From Eledone cirrhosa (taxonomy: Eukaryota): 64,000 bases of DNA. Under the pieces are notes generated by a model. That model did not search any database and was not told the DNA's origin. It was given only the letters and a program-made list of their open reading frames with translations. The stretch's first letter is position 1. Each line of letters opens with the position of its first letter. The stretch covers positions 380,246,001-380,310,000 of the forward strand of contig OZ024740.1 in NCBI GenBank assembly GCA_964016885.1, given 5' to 3'. The translations under genes and the position numbers were made by a program. Below, piece after piece: positions 11,606-61,638 of the stretch.

Positions 11606-14267
11606 CTACAGGATGGTATACAGAGAAGGCCCATTTACACGAGCCATTCTCGCCACTATCACCCACCTTTCATAAAACTGCCTGTGGCCAAGCATCTCTC
11701 TCTCCATTCTTATCCTTCTTCCGAAGTGATATCGGAAGAAGTAGACCAGACTATGGCCAGAGAGGAAGTTGCCTGACCTCAGACCTTTCAATCGTGTCCA
11801 CCAAACAACCTCTTTCAACATGGCTATTACGCACAGAAAAACCGCCTTTGCTTCCTTTGTGAAGAGGGGAGGCGGCTTGATTGTCATCACGGACTCGGCG
11901 GTCAATCGAATCGGTGCCACCCGCGACAGCAGTCGTTCGGCGTAGCCCCACAGATCAGCCACGCCCGGACATTGCACCAATGCGTGCGCAACGGTTTCTT
12001 CGTGACGCACGCATCTAAGGCAAATCTTTTTCGAGGGATCCCTGCCCGGGCGCCCGTGTCTGTAGAGCCTCTCTCGAACGGGTAGAGCCCCCCGGTAGCA
12101 CTGCCAGGCTAGTGACTTCTGGAAGTTGTCCATTGGTCCCGGGCCGAAGTCCTACCGAAAAGGCTGGCCAGTTCGTCCTCTTCCATGTCCAGCGACTCTC
12201 CAAGGGTGTCATCGCCCCTGCTGGCCACCAGCCCTCTATAGAATGATGAGGTAGATTCTCCACCGATGGTCGGGCCCGCTTGCCAGAGAGCCCTGAGCGC
12301 CTGAGCACACTCAGTGTGCCAGTCTCCCAGTTTTCCGGATCTTTTCTTGACCCAGGACTGCAGCTCGGTGAGCGAGACGAGTCTCGGAAAGGCTCGTTTC
12401 ACGAACGGAGCCCACACAGGTTGACCAGTGAGGAATACCTGTAGGTGCCGTAGCCTTAATGCGTGCCTACGCATCATCAACCCCGGCAACCCCAGCCCTC
12501 CTTTCGAAGGTTGTTGGCAGCAGATGGATCTTCTCACCATAGGAGGGCGCTTCTTCCAAAGAAATTGGAAGAGCATGCGTTCCATGGTGGTGAGTGTTTC
12601 CTTAGGGCAAGGCACGACAGTCAGGCGGTAGTAAGTGACGGACGCTATGTAAATGTTCGCCACCTCCGCCCGACCTTTTAGGGACAGCTTACACTTGGCG
12701 CATTTCTGGGTTAGTGCAAACACCTTGTTCGTAACCTCGTCCCAGTTCTTTTCCACCTGGAGGTCCGGTCCAAACCAGACCCCAAGCAACTTCACCGGGC
12801 CCTCCGTCCAGTGTCCGACGACACCGTCGGGAGGCATCGGTCTGCCTCTCCACGTTCCGAGTTGCAGCCCGATGGATTTTTCCCGGTTCAGTTTCGCTCC
12901 TGACAACCTTTCGTAATCCTCCAGTAAGGAACCGATCGCCTCGATCTCCGAGTCGATCGATACCATTACTGTTACGTCATCGGCGTAGGCCGACACCGCT
13001 TTGCTCAATCCTGGTTCTAGGGGGATACCCTGCAACAACTCCAACTTCCTCAGTAAAGGCTCGAGAGTCAATACGTACAGAAGGGAGGAGAGATGGCACC
13101 CCTGTCGAATGGATCGTGTGATTTCGAACGGCTTCGAAAGGTAGCCGTTCACCTTGATCCTAGAACAGATGTGGTTGCTATGTAAGGCAGTGATCCAGCC
13201 TCTGAAAACAGGACCGAACCCAGCCGCCGCTAGCACCGTATCCAGGTAACCATGGTCGACCCTATCGAAGGCCTTAGACTGATCCAAGTTGATCATGGCC
13301 CCACCGAAGCCGGGTTTGTGGCCAACCCTCTCTATGATGTATCGCATGAGGTGGAGGTTATCGTGAATGGACCTGGATGGGATAGCACATGTCTGCGCAT
13401 CTCCCACCAGGCAACCCACGACAAGCGCAAACCTCTTTGCTAACACCTTGGCCAATCTGCTCTCCTTAACTAATCTGCTAATCCGGTTTCTGTAAGTCTC
13501 TTTTGCCGGCAAAGACAAATTAAGTTTCCAGTAACCGGGACCCTTTTTATGTGTTTTCTCGAGATTGACTACGCAGGTCACTAATTTGTGATCCGTGTAG
13601 CCAACCGTGCGCATTTCTGGACAGCTTAATATGTCCCTATCCTTACTTCTAACTAAGAATCTATCTAAGTACGATCTAGATTGACCACTGTGGTTTCTCC
13701 AAGTCCAGGTAGGCACAGTTGGAAAATCTAGTCGATATCTATCGACCAAGTTAAAACGGTCGAGTAACCCCTTGAGGCTGTTACACCCCCCTCTATTAGG
13801 ACATGCTCCTGCATAGTCCCAACGTGCATCTAGGATGTCATTCCAATCCCCCGCTAGAAGCAGGGAACGCGACGTTCCCAGAAAAGTCTCCAAACGTTGG
13901 AAGAAGTCGGGCCGTTCAGCTCCGAAAGGGGAGTAGACGGCGACCAGTCTCAAGGCCGCACCTTCACTACTGCCAACGTCTAGCACCAACAAACGACCCT
14001 CCGGGTCCGAGTGCACAACCTGTACGGCAAGACCCAGGTGTTTTTGCAGCAGTACGACAACCCCACCCCCACCTCCAGGTTGACAGAGAGATGCATGCAC
14101 CTCAAAGTCATCGAAGGTAGGGCCAGCTGCCGCACGACGCTGATCCGAGTCTCACAGATAACCATTACATTTATACCACATGACCTGAGGTCATTTAGAA
14201 GCTTTGCTTGCTTCCAAGTTGAGCCCAGGCCACGTGCATTCAAACATCCTACTCTTAACACATCCAT
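11606..14267 (-). pseudogene. Tx1-like ORF2 (APE endonuclease, reverse transcriptase, Zn-binding); frameshifted and internally deleted
   Basis: LNARGL, ICET, AGDWN, SYLDRF, TDHK; LDQSKAFDRVDH, IRQGCHLSSLLY, YADD; CLRC..ETVAHALVQC; split across three ORFs. Confidence 0.92.
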
Positions 14268-16495: not shown

Positions 16496-16571
16496 ATATA
16501 CACGGGTGTGTATGATTGTGTATAGAAGATTATATTAATAAATTGGTAATTTTGTACTACTCATCTCTTTT

Positions 16572-17591
16572 GTGAATTGGAGAGATACTCTGGATGAGTT
16601 CAATATCCTACTGAATAACCTACACCCATCTCTCCAATTCGCAAAAGAGATGAGTAGTACCAAATTACCATTCCTAGATATAATGATAATCAAAAACGAC
16701 ACCACCATTACCACGGATATATATTATAAACACACAGACACCCATCAATATCTGAATTTTAAGTCGTGCCATCCACCTCATACAAAACACAACATCCCAT
16801 TCTGCCTAGCCAGAAGAATTTGTACCATTGCAGAAGATACGAATACCAGGTACAAACGCCTAACAGAACTAAGAGAATTCTTGCTCAAACAAAAATACCC
16901 ATCTCTACTTATAGAAAATGGCATACAGCCGGCTATAAAAATACCTATACAACAACTTAGGACAACCCAAGGAAGAAGAAACCAAGAACTAGTCATACCA
17001 TTTATAATGACACACAACCCATGTCACCAGAATATCTTCAACACTGCCAAAGCAAACCTACCGATCATTGCTCAAAGTAATGAATTAAAAGGCTTAATCA
17101 CAGATCGATCTTTAACTCTTAGTAAAAGACAGTCGAAAAATTTGAAGCAGTTACTAACAAAAGCAAAGTTTGACCTTAACAACAAAGACCAATCATTCAC
17201 TGTATCTAAATGCAATGATAGTCGATGTGGCACATGTCAATCCATACACGCCGGTCAATATATGAAAACAAAAACTGGAAAAATATTCCCAAATGCAAAT
17301 ATGAACTGCAAAAGCAGAAATCTAACTTACTGCGTTAAATGCCCGAATTGTGAAGAACTATATGTCGGTCAAACTGGAAATGCACTATCGGAACGTGCAC
17401 GGGTACACCGACAGCAAACCAGAGACCAAAATGTCCGTCAGATACCCCTAAGTAACCATCTAGCAACCTGTGGTCAGGGAATATTTATAATATTCCCATT
17501 CTACAAATTACACAGCCCAAGTGAAATCAAGAGAAAAATCAAAGAAAAGAATTTTATTGATAAACTCAAACCCAAGCTAAATGAACAATAA
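16572..17591 (+). CDS. 5'-truncated Penelope-like polyprotein: RT C-terminus/thumb plus GIY-YIG endonuclease
   Basis: LNNLHPSLQF, LPFLDIMI, YYKHTDTHQYLNFKSCHP, NLTYCVKCPNC..YVGQT, ERARVH, KLKPKLN. Confidence 0.9.
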   Translation: MNWRDTLDEFNILLNNLHPSLQFAKEMSSTKLPFLDIMIIKNDTTITTDIYYKHTDTHQYLNFKSCHPPHTKHNIPFCLARRICTIAEDTNTRYKRLTELREFLLKQKYPSLLIENGIQPAIKIPIQQLRTTQGRRNQELVIPFIMTHNPCHQNIFNTAKANLPIIAQSNELKGLITDRSLTLSKRQSKNLKQLLTKAKFDLNNKDQSFTVSKCNDSRCGTCQSIHAGQYMKTKTGKIFPNANMNCKSRNLTYCVKCPNCEELYVGQTGNALSERARVHRQQTRDQNVRQIPLSNHLATCGQGIFIIFPFYKLHSPSEIKRKIKEKNFIDKLKPKLNEQ

Positions 17592-21043: not shown

Positions 21044-21280
21044 ATATATATATATATATATATATATGAATATACAGAAAGAAATGTTTTATTCTGTGAA
21101 AAAGAATCATTTCACAAATAAATATTTAATTTACATCACAAGCGGGGCAGTAAGCTAGACGTGCGACGATTTTGAAAGCAATCTGTAAATACATCATACA
21201 TACATACATACGTACATACATACATACATACATTCATACATACATACATACATACATACATACATACATACATACATACA

Positions 21281-24186
21281 TAGCGGTGAACGAAATAGCT
21301 GGCAATTATCTGAAGGCTATACGATCTAAAGGTGTAGAAACGACATTTGAAACGCTCAATGTTTTGTTATATGTTTCAGCTGTCACATTGCTATCATATA
21401 ACACACATCTAAAACCACGCAATCAAGATACAAACAGAAAGCCTGAACCAGCGTGGATGCGAAATTTAAAAACCAAAATTTTGTCCCTGAGACGAAGTAT
21501 CTCACACATCGCAGTCGTTATGAAATGCAACATAGAGAGAAACTTCACACGACACCAGGAAGACCTAAAGAAAAAGTTAGAGAGACGATTTGGAGATACC
21601 AAATTTAAAACTTTGAACTCCAAATTACACCAGTTGAAACAACAACTCACAGCTACAACAGAAAGACTAAAATATAAGTCAACAGCCCATAAACGACAAG
21701 TGCTAAATAGATTGTTTGCCAGAGATCCTAAATCAGTTTATCGCAGCTTCGGTGGCAAAAGCTCAATCCCTGTAAACGACACCCCTTCAAAAGAACAGGT
21801 TGAGAACTACTGGAGATCTGTATGGGAAACGGATGACGGATTCAACAGACAAGCTAATTGGCTAAAACAACTGGAACAGGACTACTGCCAACATGTCCAG
21901 ACAAAACAATATGACATAGATGGGTCAATACTGGAAACAGCTCTACAGAAAATGTCGAATAGGAAATCGCCAGGCCCAGACCTCATTACAGGATACTGGT
22001 TGAAGAATTTCACTTTCTATCGGCAAGATCTCATACGGCTGTTTACAGAAACCATTAAGGGCACACAAGAACTGCCCAGATGGTTATCAACTGCCACTAC
22101 TCTCCTCATTCCCCAAAATAGCCAAACCACCCTTGCTAAAAATTACCGCCCAATTGCCTGCCAAAACATCATGTATAAATTATATACTGGGTGCCTTAAC
22201 CTGTTCTTACAGGATAACTGTGCTACCAACATCATAACACCTGAGCAAGCTGGTGGAAAGAGGGAGGTGTGGGGTTGCATAGATCACCTACTAACTAATA
22301 AAATGATTCAGGAAAAAACAACAAAGAATCGCAGAAACATGACTGTCGTGTGGCTGGACTATCAAAAAGCATTTGATAGTGTACCTCATGGGTGGATTAT
22401 TAAGGCTTTACAGTTAGCTAAAGTCCCACAACCATTAGTAGCTGCTGTTGAATGCCTGACCAAGAACTGGTACACCAATTTGATCCTTAGAGGTGAGAAG
22501 GAGCAGGTTAAGACTGATAGGATACATTACCAGAAGGGCATCTTTCAGGGTGATAGCTTGTCAGTACTACTCTTCGTTCGCTCACTGAATCCACTATCTT
22601 ACCTACTCAGGAAACAAGGTGGACAAAGAAGTGGGCCCAGAAGTATCTCCCATCGTTTCTTTGTTGATGACCTGAAGTTGTATGGGCCAAATATCAATGA
22701 CATCAAGAAACAATTGGACCTCATTACACAATTTTCAACCGACATCAAAATGAAATTTGGTGAGTCCAAGTGTGCATATTTGGCAGTAAAACGTGGAAGA
22801 GCTGTGCCCTCCTCTAGAAATCTAGATATGAACGGCCTGACAATACAACCTCTGCAGTCAGGTGACAACTACAGATATCTTGGACAGGATGAGAATGTCA
22901 GATATGATGGACCCATAAATAAGGAGAGAACCAGAACTGAATACCTCAGAAGAGTAAAAAAAATATGGTCATCAGAACTGTCAGCATACAACAAATACAT
23001 TGCCCACAATACCTATGCTGTGCCAATTCTAACGCCAACATTTGGCCTACTGAACTGGTCATTGCAAGAACTAAGTGAGATGGATGTTAGAACTCGAAAA
23101 CTTCTCAGTGTTACTGGGAACTTTAACATCAATGGTGATGTGGATAGGCTATACTTCTCACGCAAGGAAGGTGGCCGGGGTCTAAAATCAATATTAACAA
23201 CATATGAGACCCGGATAGTAACACTGAAGCAACACCTTCAACAGAGGAAAAAGGTTGGCGACCATCTTGCTCAGGTTTATGAGCATGAAAAAAGAAATAT
23301 CATTAGAATAGCGACTGATCTGGAGGAGAGATATGGAATAAAGCCTGATATAAATCTCTCACCCAGAGAAATCGGAAGATCCTATTCAATGTTCAAACAA
23401 GAAAAAAAAATTGACCAATTTACAGAGACAGTTGTGCATGGATACTTGAGGCGTAAAACACAGACCATAGAGGGGATAAACCACTCAAAAAGCCTGGCAT
23501 GGAGTTCCGACAAGTTTATGACATCACACCTTGAGGGATATCTCTATGCAATACAGGAACAAGAACTCCCTACCAAATATCTGCTGCACAAAAGAGGAGG
23601 GCCAGCAGCTGACAATAAATGTAGGCTATGTAAAACAAAGATCGAGGATGTAAGCCACATTGTTGTCAGCTGCGAAAGAATGTCATCTCGCTACTACCTC
23701 CCCATGAGACACGATGGGATAGCTAGAACTATCTGGAACGCACTTCGGAAAACAAAATTAACAACAAACGAGGAAGAATATATTGAGATAGATGGCACTA
23801 AGGAATACTGGTGGAACCTGAAAATAAAAACTGCCACCAAATTAAAGCACAACCGGCCTGATATTGTAGACCACACATTGAAAACGTGTTCTGTTGTGGA
23901 GATCAGCTGCCCACTTGATGTAAACGTTGTCAGAAAAATACAGGAGAAGGAGGACATCTACGGACCATTGATGAGGAGCTTACAAATCCAGTATCCAAGA
24001 TACACCTTTAGCTTCATACCCATCATTATTGGTGCTACGGGTTATATACCAACCCGCTTGGACCAAAGTATGACCGAACTTGGATTTGCGGACAAAAAGC
24101 GCAGCTCCCTAATTCATAGTCTACAAATGGCTGCGATAGCTGGCACCTTCAAAATATGCAAAACATTCTTGCGATTCAAGGGATGA
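21281..24186 (+). CDS. Reverse transcriptase, CCHC and restriction-like endonuclease ORF (open, 5'-truncated; the N-terminal residues of the track ORF are microsatellite)
   Basis: KSPGPD, NYRPIAC, LDYQKAFDSVPH, GIFQGDSLS, FVDDL, YRYLG; CRLC..EDVSHIVVSC, MRHD, HNRPDIV..EISCP, KEDIY. Confidence 0.9.
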
Positions 24187-27937: not shown

Positions 27938-28009
<72 letters not shown>

Positions 28010-28013
<4 letters not shown>

Positions 28014-28705
28014 ATTTTACAATACACTGTATGCTTAATTAAAAGCATTTCGAAGACCTTACGCTATTGTTTTAGAGTAGTGACAGTCTCACTTACTTTA
28101 AATTTTCACCAAACAGGGGGAGATAAAGCTGACAGAGCTCTGTTTCGGACTTTTTGGTACTTATCAAAGCTAAGTACCCCACCTGTTTGCTGAAAATCAT
28201 GAATGTTTGATTCTTATAGAATTCTAGTAATAATCAGGAACGGATTATACAGAGCGGTTGCCGGTCAAGCAGAAATTGAAAATTAGTATTGGTGCTCTGA
28301 AATAGCGATATATATATGAATGTATATATAGTGTATTTTGCAATACACTGTATGCTTAATTAAAAGCATTTCGGAGACCTTACGCTATTGTTTTAGAGTA
28401 GTTACAGTATAATCAGTATAATCAGTTCCTGATTATTACTAGAATTCTATAAGAATCAAACATTCATGATTTTCAGCAAACAGGTGGAGTACTTAGCTTT
28501 GATGAGTACCAAAAAGTACGAAACAGAGCTCTGTCAGCTTTATCTCCCCATGTTGGCTGAAAATTTAAAGTAAGTGAGACTGTCACTACTCTAAAACAAT
28601 AGCGTAAGGTCTTCGAAATGCTTTTAATTAAGCATACAGTGTATTGCAAAATACACTATATATACATTCATATATATATCGGTATTTCAGAGCACCAATT
28701 CCAAT
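28010..28705. mobile_element. ~322-bp-unit tandem plus inverted HHR element related to the 310-bp array
   Basis: 28011 repeats at ~28333; 28420-28705 inverted; shares gagcggttgccggtc and gctctgaaa(c/t)agcgat with 59191-61565; HHRs 28127-28171 (-) and 28495-28539 (+). Confidence 0.8.
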
Positions 28706-28828
28706 TATATATATATATTACATAGTAAATAGCTCTGTACAATACATAGAGCACTCTTCTTTCCTTTACATTTTCTACGGAAATACTTAACACACACACA
28801 CTCACACACACATATGTGTGTTTGTATG

Positions 28829-50070: not shown

Positions 50071-53000
50071 CTAGCAGTTTAGCCCGGCGTTGCTCGGGTT
50101 TGTTCATTTGCTATGAAAAGTTATATTCAGGTAAACGTAGCTTGAAAACGCATAAGCTTATCAATTAAGTGCATAAAGCAGTTGAACCGGTTATTAATAG
50201 TTACGAACCAATTAGCATTTTGCACAATCAATGATGGGTTAATAATCTTCCAATAGCGAATTTAGTAGACCAAAGTTGCAAGATGGTGGCCCTGATGCCG
50301 CTGGGTGTCAGATCTGTCCGCTATGGGTGACCCTACCAGTTTTCCACACGGCATAGCTCCAACACCTCCAACACCTGCAGCAACATCTATAGCACCTCTT
50401 TGTAGACGATATTGCGTGTCATCCCTTGAGGAGTGTAAGCAAAAAGTCCATTCCTGCTCTCTAGGCGGGAACAGGCAACATAAAGTTGGCCATGAGAGAA
50501 GCATGGCTCCCCCAAATGGATGCCGGCCACTGACAATGTTTGCCCTTGTGACTTGTTAATGGACATGGCAAAACCGGGAATTGGGATCGCCGGAAATCGA
50601 ACGGGATATCTGACGCCAAGGGGAAAAGGTTCATCCTTGGAATGAAAAATGTGTTCCCCTCTCCCGAACCCAGTTACAATGGTGGCCTCAATCAAATGCG
50701 GCGTCAGTGACTTGACGACGATGCGAGTACCGTTGCACTGCTTTGGTGGACGCAAGTTCCTTATTAGCATAATGGGACAGCCAACCCTAAGCTTAAGAAT
50801 TTGAGGTGGGAGCCCTGGGGGCTCAAGGGAATTAAATAACTCAACCGGATAATTAACGATATCGTTGGGATCTGACGTCCGGTCGATAGATTTGAAGATG
50901 TGTTCTTTACCGGGAATCTTCTCAATCAGCTGCTTGTTAATCATGGTATTTTTCGGAGCAAGGATGGCTCTTTCGCTGAGCCAATCAAGATTTTTAAAGT
51001 TAGATGAGACATTAGGAAAAACTGCTTCCCAAAGGTCAGAAGGGCTGCTCACAATGTTGTACAGGGAGTCGATTGCTATGCGGCCCTTGTCATCCGCAGG
51101 GATCTTGCCCTCACCAAGTGCTAAAATATTCTGAGCAAATGCTGAAGACATGTTGTCACCATGCAAATGAGCACGCATATTTGTGCTCAGGTACAAACTC
51201 TTCACCTGGAGTCACAACATGGACGACTTAAGGCAGGCACGCACTTCATCAGCTCTTGTCCCTTTGGGGATGACAGGCAGCGTTTGCCGAAAATTCCCTG
51301 ATAGCAGAAGGGTTACGCCACCCATAGGAGCCGTAGAATCCCTAATGTCTTTCTGGGTCCTGACCAATGCCTCAAGGGCACCCTTGTGTGCCATGGAGCA
51401 CTCATCCCAAACAATGAGGCAACATTTTTTGAGAACCAGAGCTTCGTGTGAACTCTTGCTGATATTGCATGTTGGTGTCTCAGTTTTTACTAAATCCAAG
51501 GGGAGTTTAAAGGTTGAATGTGCTGTCCTGCCACCCGACAGCAAAGTAGCAGCGATCCCGGAAGATGCAACGGCCAACGCAAATTTTTTCTCCTGACGAA
51601 TCTTAGCGAGAATCAATTTCGTTACATAAGTTTTTTCGGTACCCCCAGGAGCATCGAGAAAGTAAATACCCCCAGTCTGATTTTGAACCGCGTCAATGAT
51701 AGTTAAATAGTCCAACCTTTGGTCCGACAGAAGTTTGGGCTCATTTTCCTCTAAGTATTGGGAAAGAGATTCGATGTCATGCTGTTTCCCGCAACAAATC
51801 CGGGGCCAACGTGTTAGCTTCCTCTCTGACGGTTGACGGCAAGCCATACGTCGCCAACTCGCTCCCACCCATGTCGAGGAGGGCGTCCTCGATATCAATG
51901 AGTGCCCTGTTGTAGATAATGTCGCTGTAACCAACTTCCACTAAAATATACTGCAGATGAGCCAGGCGCAGGAAGTCCTCAGATATGAAGTCTCTGTACT
52001 TGACCCATAAAGATTTGGGATCACCCAATTCACACTTTTGAAGCAAAATGACAAAGAGTTCCCGTAGACCTTTAGGTGATTTCAACAAATCACCCTCTGC
52101 TAAAGTGGAATCCTATTGCGAATCAACTTCCAAAATACCACGCTTAAAGCAGGCTTCCCGGTACGTATCACATATTTCTCCATCAACAGTTTTGAGGTCC
52201 TGAAAACTTTGTGGGCCTACAACTTCATGCAGAAGAAGGCGGAGATGAAAGCACTCATATTGACTTGGGGGGGCACAGTGTAAACCCTTCCAAGGCGGCT
52301 GTCAAATTTTAGACCAGGATGTCTTTCAGCAGCCTGAGCTGACTTTCTTCGCACCCAAGTGTTTTTCGACCATATAAAGTAGGGTGGAACCTGGGAGTAC
52401 ACAATTGTTTGCGTAAATGTATCGAACTGGCAAAGTTTGAAGAAACCCGTCAGAGTGGTCTCTTTCGGATCGGCGGCCAACTTGGCGGTGGTTTGGTCCG
52501 TAAAGTAAACCCTTTGCACATTTTCCAAATGTACCGCAAGCTGTACGATGGCGGGGTGACGTTGGTGTAGGGGTAAACCAAATAGGCGCCAAAAAGCTTC
52601 ATTGCTACTGATGTACCGCCTCGCCAGGTATTCTGTGACCTCGTCCTTGCTATTTTCAGCTTGAAATGCGAACATTGTGGCATCAGAGCCCTTATTTACA
52701 TATTTGCATATGTATTTTATCGACTTGACGGAGTTGCAAAACTCAACGTTGATGTGGGCGTTGAACATCTTCAAGAGAAGCGTGCAGTAAGGGACCACCC
52801 ATCTATTGTCGACTTGACCTCCTCTTACTGTTGTGGTGAAGCCACCGTTCTCGGGCCGTCGCCGCCTGTACAGGGGGTACCCGTCGCCACCAGTCTGAGT
52901 CTGGTCAACACATTTTTGGGGGTATCCTTTACTGCACGACCCCCCCCCCTTTCAGACACGTCTGATGCTCATTAGGACCCGACGCACACGGACCATGTTA

Positions 53001-58036: not shown

Positions 58037-58054
58037 ATATATATATATATATAT

Positions 58055-59154
58055 ATAATAACTAGAAATTGATTAACATATAAATATACATGAATAATCA
58101 CAGGAGATAATTTTTTGTTCGCGTGTAACCACGCATAGCTAGTATAGGTAATATTTACCTTTAAGAGTGATTAACCTTCCTTGTATATATCCCATTAAAG
58201 AAATATATTTCACCAATTAATCAGATGGTAAGTCACGGAAAGTGGATATTATTGGATTGTCAACAAGGAAAGTGTAATAATGTCCAGCCATTCGTCCTTA
58301 CAGAGTGAGTTCAAATCTTCATCTAGCCGTTACCACGTGTTGTGTCTACACAAGATAGCGGTTTCGTTTCAGTGGCGCGAATAGATATTCGACAACTAGA
58401 AATAGAAGTCAAATTCTCTTCAACAGAAATAGCTATACAATTAAGGAGCCGTATATATATATCTAAATCCAAAATTAAGATAAAATAAATTAAATGAATT
58501 TAATCTAAATCGAAATTATGGGTGTCATGTCATAATGTATGCGCCATATATCCTGGAAATTAAGCTCAAAGATAAATCCGAGCATATTATAATAACTAGA
58601 AATTGATTAACATATAAATATACATGAATAATCACAGGAGATAATTTTTGCTCGCGTGTAACCACGCATAGCTAATATAGGTAATATTTACCTTTAAGAG
58701 TGATTAACCTTCCTTGTCGAATACCTATTCACGCCACTGAAACGAAACCGCGGTAACGGCTAGATGAAGATTTGAACTCACTCTGTAAGGACGAATGGCT
58801 GGACATTATTACACTTTCCTTGTTGACAATCCAATAATATCCACTCTCCGTGACTTACCATCTGATTAATTGGTGAAATATATTTCTTTAATGGGATATA
58901 TACAAGGAAGGTTAATCACTCTTAAAGGTAAATATTACCTATACTAGCTATGCGTGGTTACACGCGAGCAAAAATTATCTCCTGTGATTATTCATGTATA
59001 TTTATATGTTAATCAATTTCTAGTTATTATAATATGCTCGGATTTATCTTTGAGCTTAATTTCCAGGATATATGGCGCATGCATTATGACATGACACCCA
59101 TAATTTCGACTTAGATTAAATTCATTTAATTTATTTTATCTTAATTTTGGATTT

Positions 59155-59160
<6 letters not shown>
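58055..59160. mobile_element. 534-bp-unit tandem plus inverted element carrying a SINE-like segment
   Basis: 58055 repeats at 58589; 58716-59160 inverted; gagttcaaatc B-box at ~58307. Confidence 0.8.
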
Positions 59161-59192
<32 letters not shown>

Positions 59193-59349
59193 TGGAATAA
59201 ATGCTCTGAAACAGCGATACACATGTGAGTATAGACATAGAACACCCGAAAATACCCTGTATGTTTATAATAAACACCCTGAAGACCTAATCGCTATAGA
59301 ATAGAATACGCCACGTATTACAATTAGATTCTCGATAAAAGCAAGGGAA

Positions 59350-59392
59350 GTAATCTACGCGTTTCATTCTTGTTAGAATTCATCAGGACTAC
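59350..59392 (-). ncRNA. Minimal type I hammerhead; also 59660, 59970, 60280 (minus)
   Basis: Minus strand: gtagtc CTGATGA attct-aaca-agaat GAAA cgcg TA gattac. Confidence 0.88.
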
Positions 59393-60783
59393 ATATCCAG
59401 TGCTTTTATCGAGAATGACACAGCCAGAGACTTATAGAACACTTAGCTGTGTACTGGAACTGGTTTGAAAGAGCGGTTGCCGGTCCGGCAGAAATTAGAA
59501 ATTGGAATAAATGCTCTGAAACAGCGATACACATGTGAGTATAGACATAGAACACCCGAAAATACCCTGTATGTTTATAATAAACACCCTGAAGACCTAA
59601 TCGCTATAGAATAGAATACGCCACGTATTACAATTAGATTCTCGATAAAAGCAAGGGAAGTAATCTACGCGTTTCATTCTTGTTAGAATTCATCAGGACT
59701 ACATATCCAGTGCTTTTATCGAGAATGACACAGCCAGAGACTTATAGAACACTTAGCTGTGTACTGGAACTGGTTTGAAAGAGCGGTTGCCGGTCCGGCA
59801 GAAATTAGAAATTGGAATAAATGCTCTGAAACAGCGATACACATGTGAGTATAGACATAGAACACCCGAAAATACCCTGTATGTTTATAATAAACACCCT
59901 GAAGACCTAATCGCTATAGAATAGAATACGCCACGTATTACAATTAGATTCTCGATAAAAGCAAGGGAAGTAATCTACGCGTTTCATTCTTGTTAGAATT
60001 CATCAGGACTACATATCCAGTGCTTTTATCGAGAATGACACAGCCAGAGACTTATAGAACACTTAGCTGTGTACTGGAACTGGTTTGAAAGAGCGGTTGC
60101 CGGTCCGGCAGAAATTAGAAATTGGAATAAATGCTCTGAAACAGCGATACACATGTGAGTATAGACATAGAACACCCGAAAATACCCTGTATGTTTATAA
60201 TAAACACCCTGAAGACCTAATCGCTATAGAATAGAATACGCCACGTATTACAATTAGATTCTCGATAAAAGCAAGGGAAGTAATCTACGCGTTTCATTCT
60301 TGTTAGAATTCATCAGGACTACATATCCAGTGCTTTTATCGAGAATGACACAGCCAGAGACTTATAGAACACTTAGCTGTGTACTGGAACTGGTTTGAAA
60401 GAGCGGTTGCCGGTCCGGCAGAAATTAGAAATTGGAATAAATGCTCTGAAACAGCGATACACATGTGAGTATAGACATAGAACACCCGAAAATACCCTGT
60501 ATGTTTATAATAAACACCCTGAAGACCTAATCGCTATAGAATAGAATACGCCACGTATTACAATTAGATTCTCGATTAGGTCTTCAGGGTGTTTATTATA
60601 AACATACAGGGTATTTTCGGGTGTTCTATGTCTATACTCACATGTGTATCGCTGTTTCAGAGCATTTATTCCAATTTCTAATTTCTGCCGGACCGGCAAC
60701 CGCTCTTTCAAACCAGTTCCAGTACACAGCTAAGTGTTCTATAAGTCTCTGGCTGTGTCATTCTCGATAAAAGCACTGGATAT

Positions 60784-60826
60784 GTAGTCCTGATGAATTC
60801 TAACAAGAATGAAACGCGTAGATTAC
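60784..60826 (+). ncRNA. Minimal type I hammerhead; also 61094, 61404 (plus)
   Basis: gtagtc CTGATGA attctaacaagaat GAAA cgcg TA gattac; palindromic ACGCGT. Confidence 0.88.
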
Positions 60827-61558
60827 TTCCCTTGCTTTTATCGAGAATCTAATTGTAATACGTGGCGTATTCTATTCTATAGCGATTAGGTCTTCAGGGT
60901 GTTTATTATAAACATACAGGGTATTTTCGGGTGTTCTATGTCTATACTCACATGTGTATCGCTGTTTCAGAGCATTTATTCCAATTTCTAATTTCTGCCG
61001 GACCGGCAACCGCTCTTTCAAACCAGTTCCAGTACACAGCTAAGTGTTCTATAAGTCTCTGGCTGTGTCATTCTCGATAAAAGCACTGGATATGTAGTCC
61101 TGATGAATTCTAACAAGAATGAAACGCGTAGATTACTTCCCTTGCTTTTATCGAGAATCTAATTGTAATACGTGGCGTATTCTATTCTATAGCGATTAGG
61201 TCTTCAGGGTGTTTATTATAAACATACAGGGTATTTTCGGGTGTTCTATGTCTATACTCACATGTGTATCGCTGTTTCAGAGCATTTATTCCAATTTCTA
61301 ATTTCTGCCGGACCGGCAACCGCTCTTTCAAACCAGTTCCAGTACACAGCTAAGTGTTCTATAAGTCTCTGGCTGTGTCATTCTCGATAAAAGCACTGGA
61401 TATGTAGTCCTGATGAATTCTAACAAGAATGAAACGCGTAGATTACTTCCCTTGCTTTTATCGAGAATCTAATTGTAATACGTGGCGTATTCTATTCTAT
61501 AGCGATTAGGTCTTCAGGGTGTTTATTATAAACATACAGGGTATTTTCGGGTGTTCTA

Positions 61559-61638
<80 letters not shown>

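Follow-up and report, generated by a model that had tools for sequence, protein, structure and literature searches.

How does a tandem array of ribozyme-carrying units come to reverse its orientation midway? The question is raised by a locus near one end of a 64,000-nucleotide stretch of Eledone cirrhosa DNA (contig OZ024740.1; hereafter the window, with positions counted from its first letter). The first-pass annotation had offered two answers: either multimeric cDNA snapped back on itself, or two target-primed events were joined. Based on the members of the same repeat family in the genome assembly that we searched (3.0 Gb, a single haplotype), we arrive at a different view. The head-to-head inversion is the normal insertion form of this 310-bp family and not an accident, and the window array is a real, young non-LTR retrozyme insertion of the Penelope type. 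As to its origin, we consider it likely that the reverse transcriptase/endonuclease of a Penelope-like element (PLE) primed both cut (TA)n strands at two sites, A and B, of one circular ADAR-edited 310-nt RNA.

The array and its ribozymes

The array consists of two arms that are reverse complements of each other and overlap by 4 nt. The left arm (59189..60576; 1388 bp, 4.5 units) has its ribozyme sense on the minus strand and the right arm (60573..61566; 994 bp, 3.2 units) on the plus strand. They meet in a head-to-head (5'-to-5') junction with the 4-nt microhomology cgat (60573..60576), which is where the switch of orientation had been placed at first reading. TRF describes both arms as tandems of a 310-bp unit with 100% internal identity (4.5 and 3.2 copies); this bears out the earlier claim that the units are identical, and the perfect identity of the arms also agrees with the proposed very recent activity. 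No reading frame of at least 150 aa is found over the array. If the unit is numbered from the first base past the predicted cleavage site, the left arm has its 5' end at position 20 and its 3' end at position 167 (site B, the 'tail' end), and the right arm has them at positions 63 and 126 (site A, the short end). The interval between the two end sites, unit positions 126-167, can be located at 60946..60987 on the plus strand. Both outer ends run into (TA)n target tracts (59157..59189 on the left and 61563..61606 on the right), the left one also terminating a neighbouring insertion of a 533-bp family. Because both ends lie inside (TA)n, a target-site duplication is unreadable. The array had been described as a palindrome with arms of about 1 kb and with both 3' ends pointing outward into (TA)n. 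The reverse-complementary arms and the outward direction of the ends stand; however, the central 39 nt are non-paired (in the closest register), the two outer ends differ, being at unit positions 167 and 126 (41 nt apart), and the right arm reaches 61566 instead of 61565.

Every unit contains one type I hammerhead with a GUA site and a palindromic stem III, as judged from sequence and fold. Four hammerheads are on the minus strand, at 59336..59401, 59646..59711, 59956..60021 and 60266..60331 (predicted cleavage after 59356, 59666, 59976 and 60286, respectively), and three are on the plus strand, at 60775..60840, 61085..61150 and 61395..61460 (predicted cleavage after 60820, 61130 and 61440), in the same numbers and on the same strands as previously noted. 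The cleavage-to-cleavage monomer (60821..61130, plus strand) is 310 nt long and would represent the RNA circle. For the 87-nt ribozyme region, the predicted fold has an energy of -30.6 kcal/mol (z -7.0; three of the seven identical copies were folded) and comprises stems I and II plus a 14-bp distal extension of stem I, and the circular fold of the commonest 310-nt unit has a z of -4.4. At the gathering score Rfam gives no match to the array, and its Hammerhead_HH9 model matches all seven copies weakly (23 bits versus a gathering score of 52, E 0.019). Core and fold, with HH9 below gathering, are in agreement with the canonical type I hammerhead, palindromic stem III and GTA site recognised at the outset. 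Matches to miRNA families at the junction were below threshold and due to the hairpin, and they were discarded.

The array is not the only mobile sequence in the window. Directly next to it lies another two-armed insertion (58041-59157), which belongs to an unrelated 533-bp tandem family and has the left (TA)n in common with it. The junction overlap of this insertion is at 58714-58717 and its two fixed end sites are about 130 nt apart; for the 533-bp repeat and its relatives, one short and one long end are seen in most loci shown, some ends being truncated. As a candidate hammerhead, the motif in the 533-bp unit was rejected, as it is without the canonical core and no hammerhead fold was obtained. 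Farther away are a GIY-YIG PLE fragment (16542-17591), two LINE-type RT frames (12109-14151 and 21154-24186) and a PIF1 helicase fragment (50387-51940), which we take to be Helitron-like.

The ends of the 310-bp family across the genome

The first-pass annotation had tied its reading to the existence of other genomic copies, and the 310-bp unit indeed has at least 400 matches in the assembly. On the forward strand, patterns designed on the two ends matched 762 times at site B (control, 0) and 789 times at site A (control, 37), from which we infer a family of about 1,500 insertions; forward-strand counts were used, reverse counts being inflated by overlapping matches. When 20 stretches were picked by similarity alone, 18 of them held head-to-head arrays, in which one arm ends at about 126-139 (site A) and the other at about 163-172 (site B). 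At these similarity-picked loci, both A and B outer ends run into (TA)n. Site A is an AU-rich stretch, and across insertions site B lies about 30-40 nt downstream of it. The matches listed within the first 96 Mb of contig C1 comprise 47 B and 51 A ends; all 39 outward-facing pairs formed by these listed ends are A+B, and 20 ends are unpaired.

For a closer analysis, 82 pieces were fetched, which gave 79 insertions, the window included, after dropping a duplicate (L097, a copy of L075) and two pieces of the complex locus L051. Among the 79 insertions, 66 are A+B, 10 have only A and 3 only B, and there is no A+A or B+B. In other words, each of the 66 two-armed insertions is head-to-head and has one A and one B end. 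The A ends lie at about 126-133 and the B ends at about 163-172; one 'A' arm, that of L102, reaches 147. All 11 further two-armed loci with both ends in view are A+B as well. That the inversion in the window is a one-off event is thus not supported. The assignment to non-LTR retrozymes, on the other hand, is supported by the short non-coding unit, the single hammerhead in each and the dispersed multi-copy family. One arm alone is present in 13 of the 79 insertions. It is worth pointing out that in one such seemingly single-armed locus (L093, G000:C1:41160415-41170015) the 5' flank reads as a site-B end of about 6 bases. Some one-armed copies may therefore be extreme two-armed ones, as this locus hints.

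The template of the two arms

The most informative feature of the window copy is its set of base changes. The first 20 stretches together with the window contain 161 full units, and 143 of these have the commonest sequence. The window unit differs from the latter at 14 sites, and all 14 differences are A>G on the ribozyme strand. They lie within 60865..61061 on the plus strand (60865, 60897-60899, 60920, 60921, 60930, 60931, 60933, 60954, 60956, 60964, 61046 and 61061) and recur in each pass of the left and the right arm. Since other insertions, older subfamilies included, carry A at these sites, G in the window is derived. Among sporadic single-pass changes, A>G accounts for 5 of 53. Four patterns covering three edit clusters match only the window locus in the whole assembly, and patterns with two Gs revealed no second copy in the assembly edited at the window's clusters.

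Hyper-editing is absent from the other 78 insertions of the first sample; in nine of them, both arms are fixed for one or two rare changes, whatever their kind, a count that excludes L046, which belongs to an older subfamily. Searches with one site set to G led to 19 stretches. In nine young-subfamily loci found by one A>G, where the G is not restricted to one isolated pass within a longer array, there are 22 further non-backbone changes, 19 of which are A>G too; the remaining ten stretches have the G in a single pass or represent older subfamilies. Five loci (L212, L214, L215, L216 and L218) have A>G sets of their own that are common to both arms, spread over 22 units in L214 and amounting to 12 changes in the short arms of L216. 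Counts for single sites alone are no proof of editing, since the control T145C is also fixed, at three multi-unit loci, compared with three A144G loci having more than one match. Of the other controls, T240C gave three and A241C/T five single-unit matches and no multi-unit loci, whereas A241G gave five multi-unit loci. The A61G search gave five matches, single-unit only.

The 14 changes would have been made by ADAR, and deaminase-domain genes of the ADAR/ADAT family are encoded in the genome. By themselves, the window's 14 sites show no ADAR neighbour bias (a 5' U and a 3' G being preferred and a 5' G disfavoured by the enzyme). For pooled sites, of which three were hand-chosen (one by context), both a 5' U (18/32 versus 18/62, p 0.014) and a 3' G (9/32 versus 7/62, p 0.048) are weakly enriched. 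The stems of the folded circle are not enriched in the 14 sites (p 0.53) or in the pooled sites (p 0.21), and editing within the circle's own stems is thus not supported. The site-A end of the window, at 126, is found there in only 3 of 76 A ends; in this one case, the position fits the loss of an AUAUAU stretch through the edits at 134 and 136. Outside the window, A276G (UAG context, hammerhead stem I) is found on three subfamily backgrounds (L060, L071, L099, L101, L102 and L210), which suggests that unit position 276 is a recurrent editing site.

Because the edit set is repeated in 7.7 tandem passes and in two orientations, it can be regarded as a molecular barcode of the template. Since, on the ribozyme strand, the edits read A>G and not T>C, the template was sense RNA, and the barcode in edited copies ties all units and both arms to one ribozyme-strand RNA molecule. 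The family as a whole points in the same direction: the subfamily haplotype agrees between the arms in all 41 informative loci (25% when shuffled), at no locus are the two arms fixed for different bases at a site, and rare variants and edits are common to both. The identical edit set in all passes and the lack of a 5'-end pile-up make a circular template, as supposed in the first-pass annotation, the most likely one. The 5' ends are scattered round the unit, only 3 of 132 being within 3 nt of the cleavage site, which is at chance level. Of 63 scored junctions, 44 have 0-16 shared bases, and in 26 of these 44 at least 2 nt are shared, compared with 18% for random joins. The other 19 have extra bases or were mis-scored or left unresolved by the script; the window is one of them (the script gave -22, the true overlap being 4).

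Passes over the ligation site, 708 in total, contain just 2 mismatch calls, and the 29 inserted bases counted at this site come down to one fixed base in three loci. One extra base right after the cleavage/ligation site, fixed in all passes, was noted in L051, L058, L108, L211 and L214 (C in three loci, T in two), and contigs of the public run X1 have G or GG. Such a base might arise at the ligation junction. Words of the 310-bp unit also occur in public runs labelled as many organisms (two contig sets were examined). In run X5, there is one 340-nt self-closing contig, which fits a circle or a tandem array equally well.

The strongest rival to the circular template is PLE priming at the same two sites on a linear one, either a homogeneous multimer or a monomer re-entered by end-to-end template jumps on the same molecule. 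The multimer would come from an edited source array absent from the assembly or from viroid-like RNA-to-RNA copying of an edited circle. Supporting this idea is the in vitro work of Frangieh 2024 (PMC11167929), according to which unprocessed linear RNA is the main substrate and ribozyme cleavage is dispensable. The mixed arrays L067 and L099 are also easier to explain by multimer templates. Variants recur at intervals in the long arrays L062 and L066 (with a 7-unit period) and L067; in L099 (G000:C1:61292588-61302188) position 276 is A in the four target-proximal passes of the B arm and G in the later passes and the entire A arm. Such a pattern could have arisen if, while copying proceeded, the RNA was edited or the template changed, the B arm having been the first to start. 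The recurring variants and the switch within an arm indicate that DNA-level duplication or mixed templates do occur. Furthermore, with the assembly representing one haplotype, an edited source locus could be missing from it. Nonetheless, we find a linear template unlikely. A monomer copied repeatedly is needed, because editing of a transcript from an unedited array would differ from unit to unit, and because a linear monomer would limit the arms to 133 and 165 nt. The assembly contains no edited source, several independent loci would each need a lost one, and a lost source would itself require the repeated copying of one monomer. Template jumps, judging by R2, should leave added bases as well as 5' ends at the cleavage site, and neither is seen here.

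The snap-back proposed in the first-pass annotation, in which multimeric cDNA folds back and the second arm is copied from the first in a way related to the self-priming model of Arkhipova 2013, accounts for the identical arms and for the microhomology at the junction, and the lengths of the window's arms (1388 and 994) are compatible with it. The rest of the family makes it quite improbable. Eight of 66 arm-length pairs fall in the range that is impossible under snap-back, the A and B lengths are uncorrelated (r -0.01), and the longer arm is A in 33 insertions and B in the other 33. Among 75 single-pass variants there is only one candidate mirrored between arms. The constant A+B ends are left without explanation, and edits that are A>G on the ribozyme strand indicate copying from sense RNA.

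A short two-armed seed might alternatively have been expanded in the DNA by unequal crossing-over or slippage. Local amplification of retrozymes is favoured by Li, Clavereau and Pollet 2026 (10.64898/2026.07.22.740005), and the 7-unit-period variants of L066 and L062 as well as the duplication of a whole insertion (L075/L097) could be taken as its traces here. However, to hold the edits at 226 and 241 both arms of the seed must already comprise a whole unit spanning the ligation site, which leads back to a circle or a multimer, and in 54 of the 66 two-armed insertions, young as they are, both arms exceed one unit with almost no divergence. We therefore give this possibility very little credence.

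Still less probable is the second answer given initially, that separate target-primed events, each on an RNA of its own, were joined. Each outer end does resemble a separate priming in (TA)n, and the haplotype switch inside one L099 arm might be seen in this light, but A+A and B+B insertions would then be expected, and neither the haplotype concordance of the arms (41/41) nor the sharing of rare variants and edits by the two arms would follow. Finally, although public-run contigs (two sets) show no strand-changing joint, we can hardly conceive of the inversion as a fold-back read or assembly artefact, a concern raised already at first reading, because a fold-back should repeat one end and its flank in mirror image while here the ends differ by a fixed rule kept in four unrelated repeat families, the flanks are unrelated, and contigs of the independent run X1 show loose TA ends at both A and B.

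Probable Penelope-type mobilisation and known systems

If a circle is copied from two fixed sites, which enzyme might be responsible? PLEs described by Craig 2021 (PMC8557442) have an inverted 5'-truncated copy at the 5' end, (TA)n targets and a tail of 30-40 bp that is frequently one-sided; how their tandem and inverted insertions come about is described there as undefined. The same form is reported by Arkhipova 2013 (PMC3846280), where self-priming on an antisense template is proposed; for the present family this is contradicted by the strand of the edits. The anole PLE protein, a predicted dimer, cuts and extends both target strands in vitro, using two internal RT starts that are one tail length apart (Frangieh 2024, PMC11167929). 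Since PLE reverse transcription starts internally, an RNA 3' end is unnecessary. By analogy with the anole element, 60946-60987 may be a pair of reverse-transcription start sites together with the 'tail', and the 310-bp family is likely to be moved by a Penelope-type retrotransposon enzyme.

The genome has at least 150 scored GIY-YIG places (10,596 candidates), and of eight long frames scanned, four contain RT and GIY-YIG, three RT only and one GIY-YIG only. In two RT+GIY-YIG elements, L166 and L172, the arms meet head-to-head and both ends lie in (TA)n, one of them reaching 65 nt farther than the other. PLE coding sequence was also observed in near-perfect palindromes of 3.3-3.6 kb (L165 and L166; G000:C1:97884000-97893999 and C1:438608500-438618499). 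A third family, related to the 310-bp unit, has one short and one long end in most loci shown, with some ends truncated. Unit positions 59-190 form a block conserved across at least three families, which makes it a candidate binding site for the enzyme. No PLE sharing this block was found by BLAST and a four-copy profile in 50 GIY-YIG loci (30 of 3 kb and 20 of 10 kb); this search matched only other non-coding relatives. What the 310-bp unit was seen to have in common with PLEs is a short end motif of the CCAAT/CTAAT type. The PLE fragment of the window (16542-17591) was rejected as a partner, being without the block. Relatives of the 310-bp unit that do have it are located at 27987-28706 and 41699-42098 of the window, the first of them head-to-head.

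Based on these observations, it is tempting to outline the following course of events. A source array would be transcribed, and hammerhead cleavage and host ligation would give a monomer circle, as in other animals. ADAR would edit 14 adenosines, and the inosines would be read as G by the reverse transcriptase, leaving the A>G pattern. A PLE ribonucleoprotein, to which PLEs of this genome and the in vitro work point, would cut the TA tract, and a PLE dimer would prime one strand at A and the other at B, in keeping with the A+B rule. Each primer would be extended for several turns round a covalently closed circle, giving identical passes, and the cDNA ends would be joined through short microhomology, enriched at the junctions, presumably by host end-joining. 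Taken as a whole, we lean towards one circular ribozyme RNA that is rolling-circle copied from two fixed starts by a dimeric Penelope enzyme, with ADAR edits serving as barcodes. If this is the case, tandem, inverted and 'tail' PLE structures would be explained by a single model, the edited copies would be the first direct genomic record of animal retrozymes moving via circles, and RNA editing would, in the germ line, supply a mobile family with heritable sequence variants. As a ready-made inverted repeat, each insertion is likely to provide dsRNA on which editing and silencing can act; the edited copies imply that editing in turn returns variants to the genome. Since the family offers roughly 1,500 young insertions, follows a strict end rule and carries a barcode in its edited copies, the mechanism lends itself to computational testing.

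The 310-bp family resembles metazoan non-LTR retrozymes in its non-coding tandem units (150-400 nt in that class) with one type I hammerhead each, a self-paired circle (here a predicted one), dispersed arrays and the presence of PLEs in the same genome. Circles were demonstrated for coral, mussel and axolotl retrozymes by Cervera and de la Pena 2020 (PMC7229834), who put forward a circular template for the PLE RT as a hypothesis, without direct evidence. Li 2026 linked retrozymes to PLE pLTRs and observed cleavage in one of nine predicted elements; pLTR homology, present in Xenopus families, was not found for the 310-bp family in the 50 GIY-YIG loci searched. As far as the parts of these two studies consulted go, they deal with direct tandem arrays only and contain neither an insertion-end rule nor a direct record of the template, whereas they demonstrate circRNA and cleavage, which for the present family are predicted from sequence.

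With EN+ PLEs, the family shares the inverted 5'-truncated head-to-head copy, the one-sided 30-40 bp tail, (TA)n targets, 5'-junction microhomology and, presumably, two internal RT starts on both target strands. In the sections of the EN+ PLE papers considered, the tail is optional or often one-sided, and neither a strict one-A-one-B rule nor a single RNA molecule for both arms is stated. Unlike EN+ PLEs, the 310-bp family is without an ORF and its tandem unit is the whole element. In LINE-1 twin priming, too, both target ends prime on one RNA, which results in a head-to-head inversion joined through microhomology, but only a minority of L1 insertions arise in this way, the template is a linear poly(A) RNA and the second site varies, lying beside the stop of the first cDNA. 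In contrast, the inverted form is the majority outcome here (66/79), both sites are fixed, both arms can extend over many unit lengths and the 5' end of the B arm is not tied to site A. Retroelement copies hypermutated from A to G, with clustered changes on the RNA-sense strand fixed by reverse transcription, have been attributed to ADAR; unlike them, the window array has the same edit set in each of its 7.7 tandem passes and in both orientations. No paper on the A+B rule, a single-template origin or edited retrozyme or PLE copies was found in the main texts of the open-access literature searched, and the portions of PMC9977147 and PMC11722881 that were covered add nothing on the retrozyme template or PLE insertion points. 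Against this background, the retrozyme class and the inverted-plus-tail form of insertion are known, while the A+B rule, the origin of both arms from one template and the edit barcode appear to be new relative to that literature.
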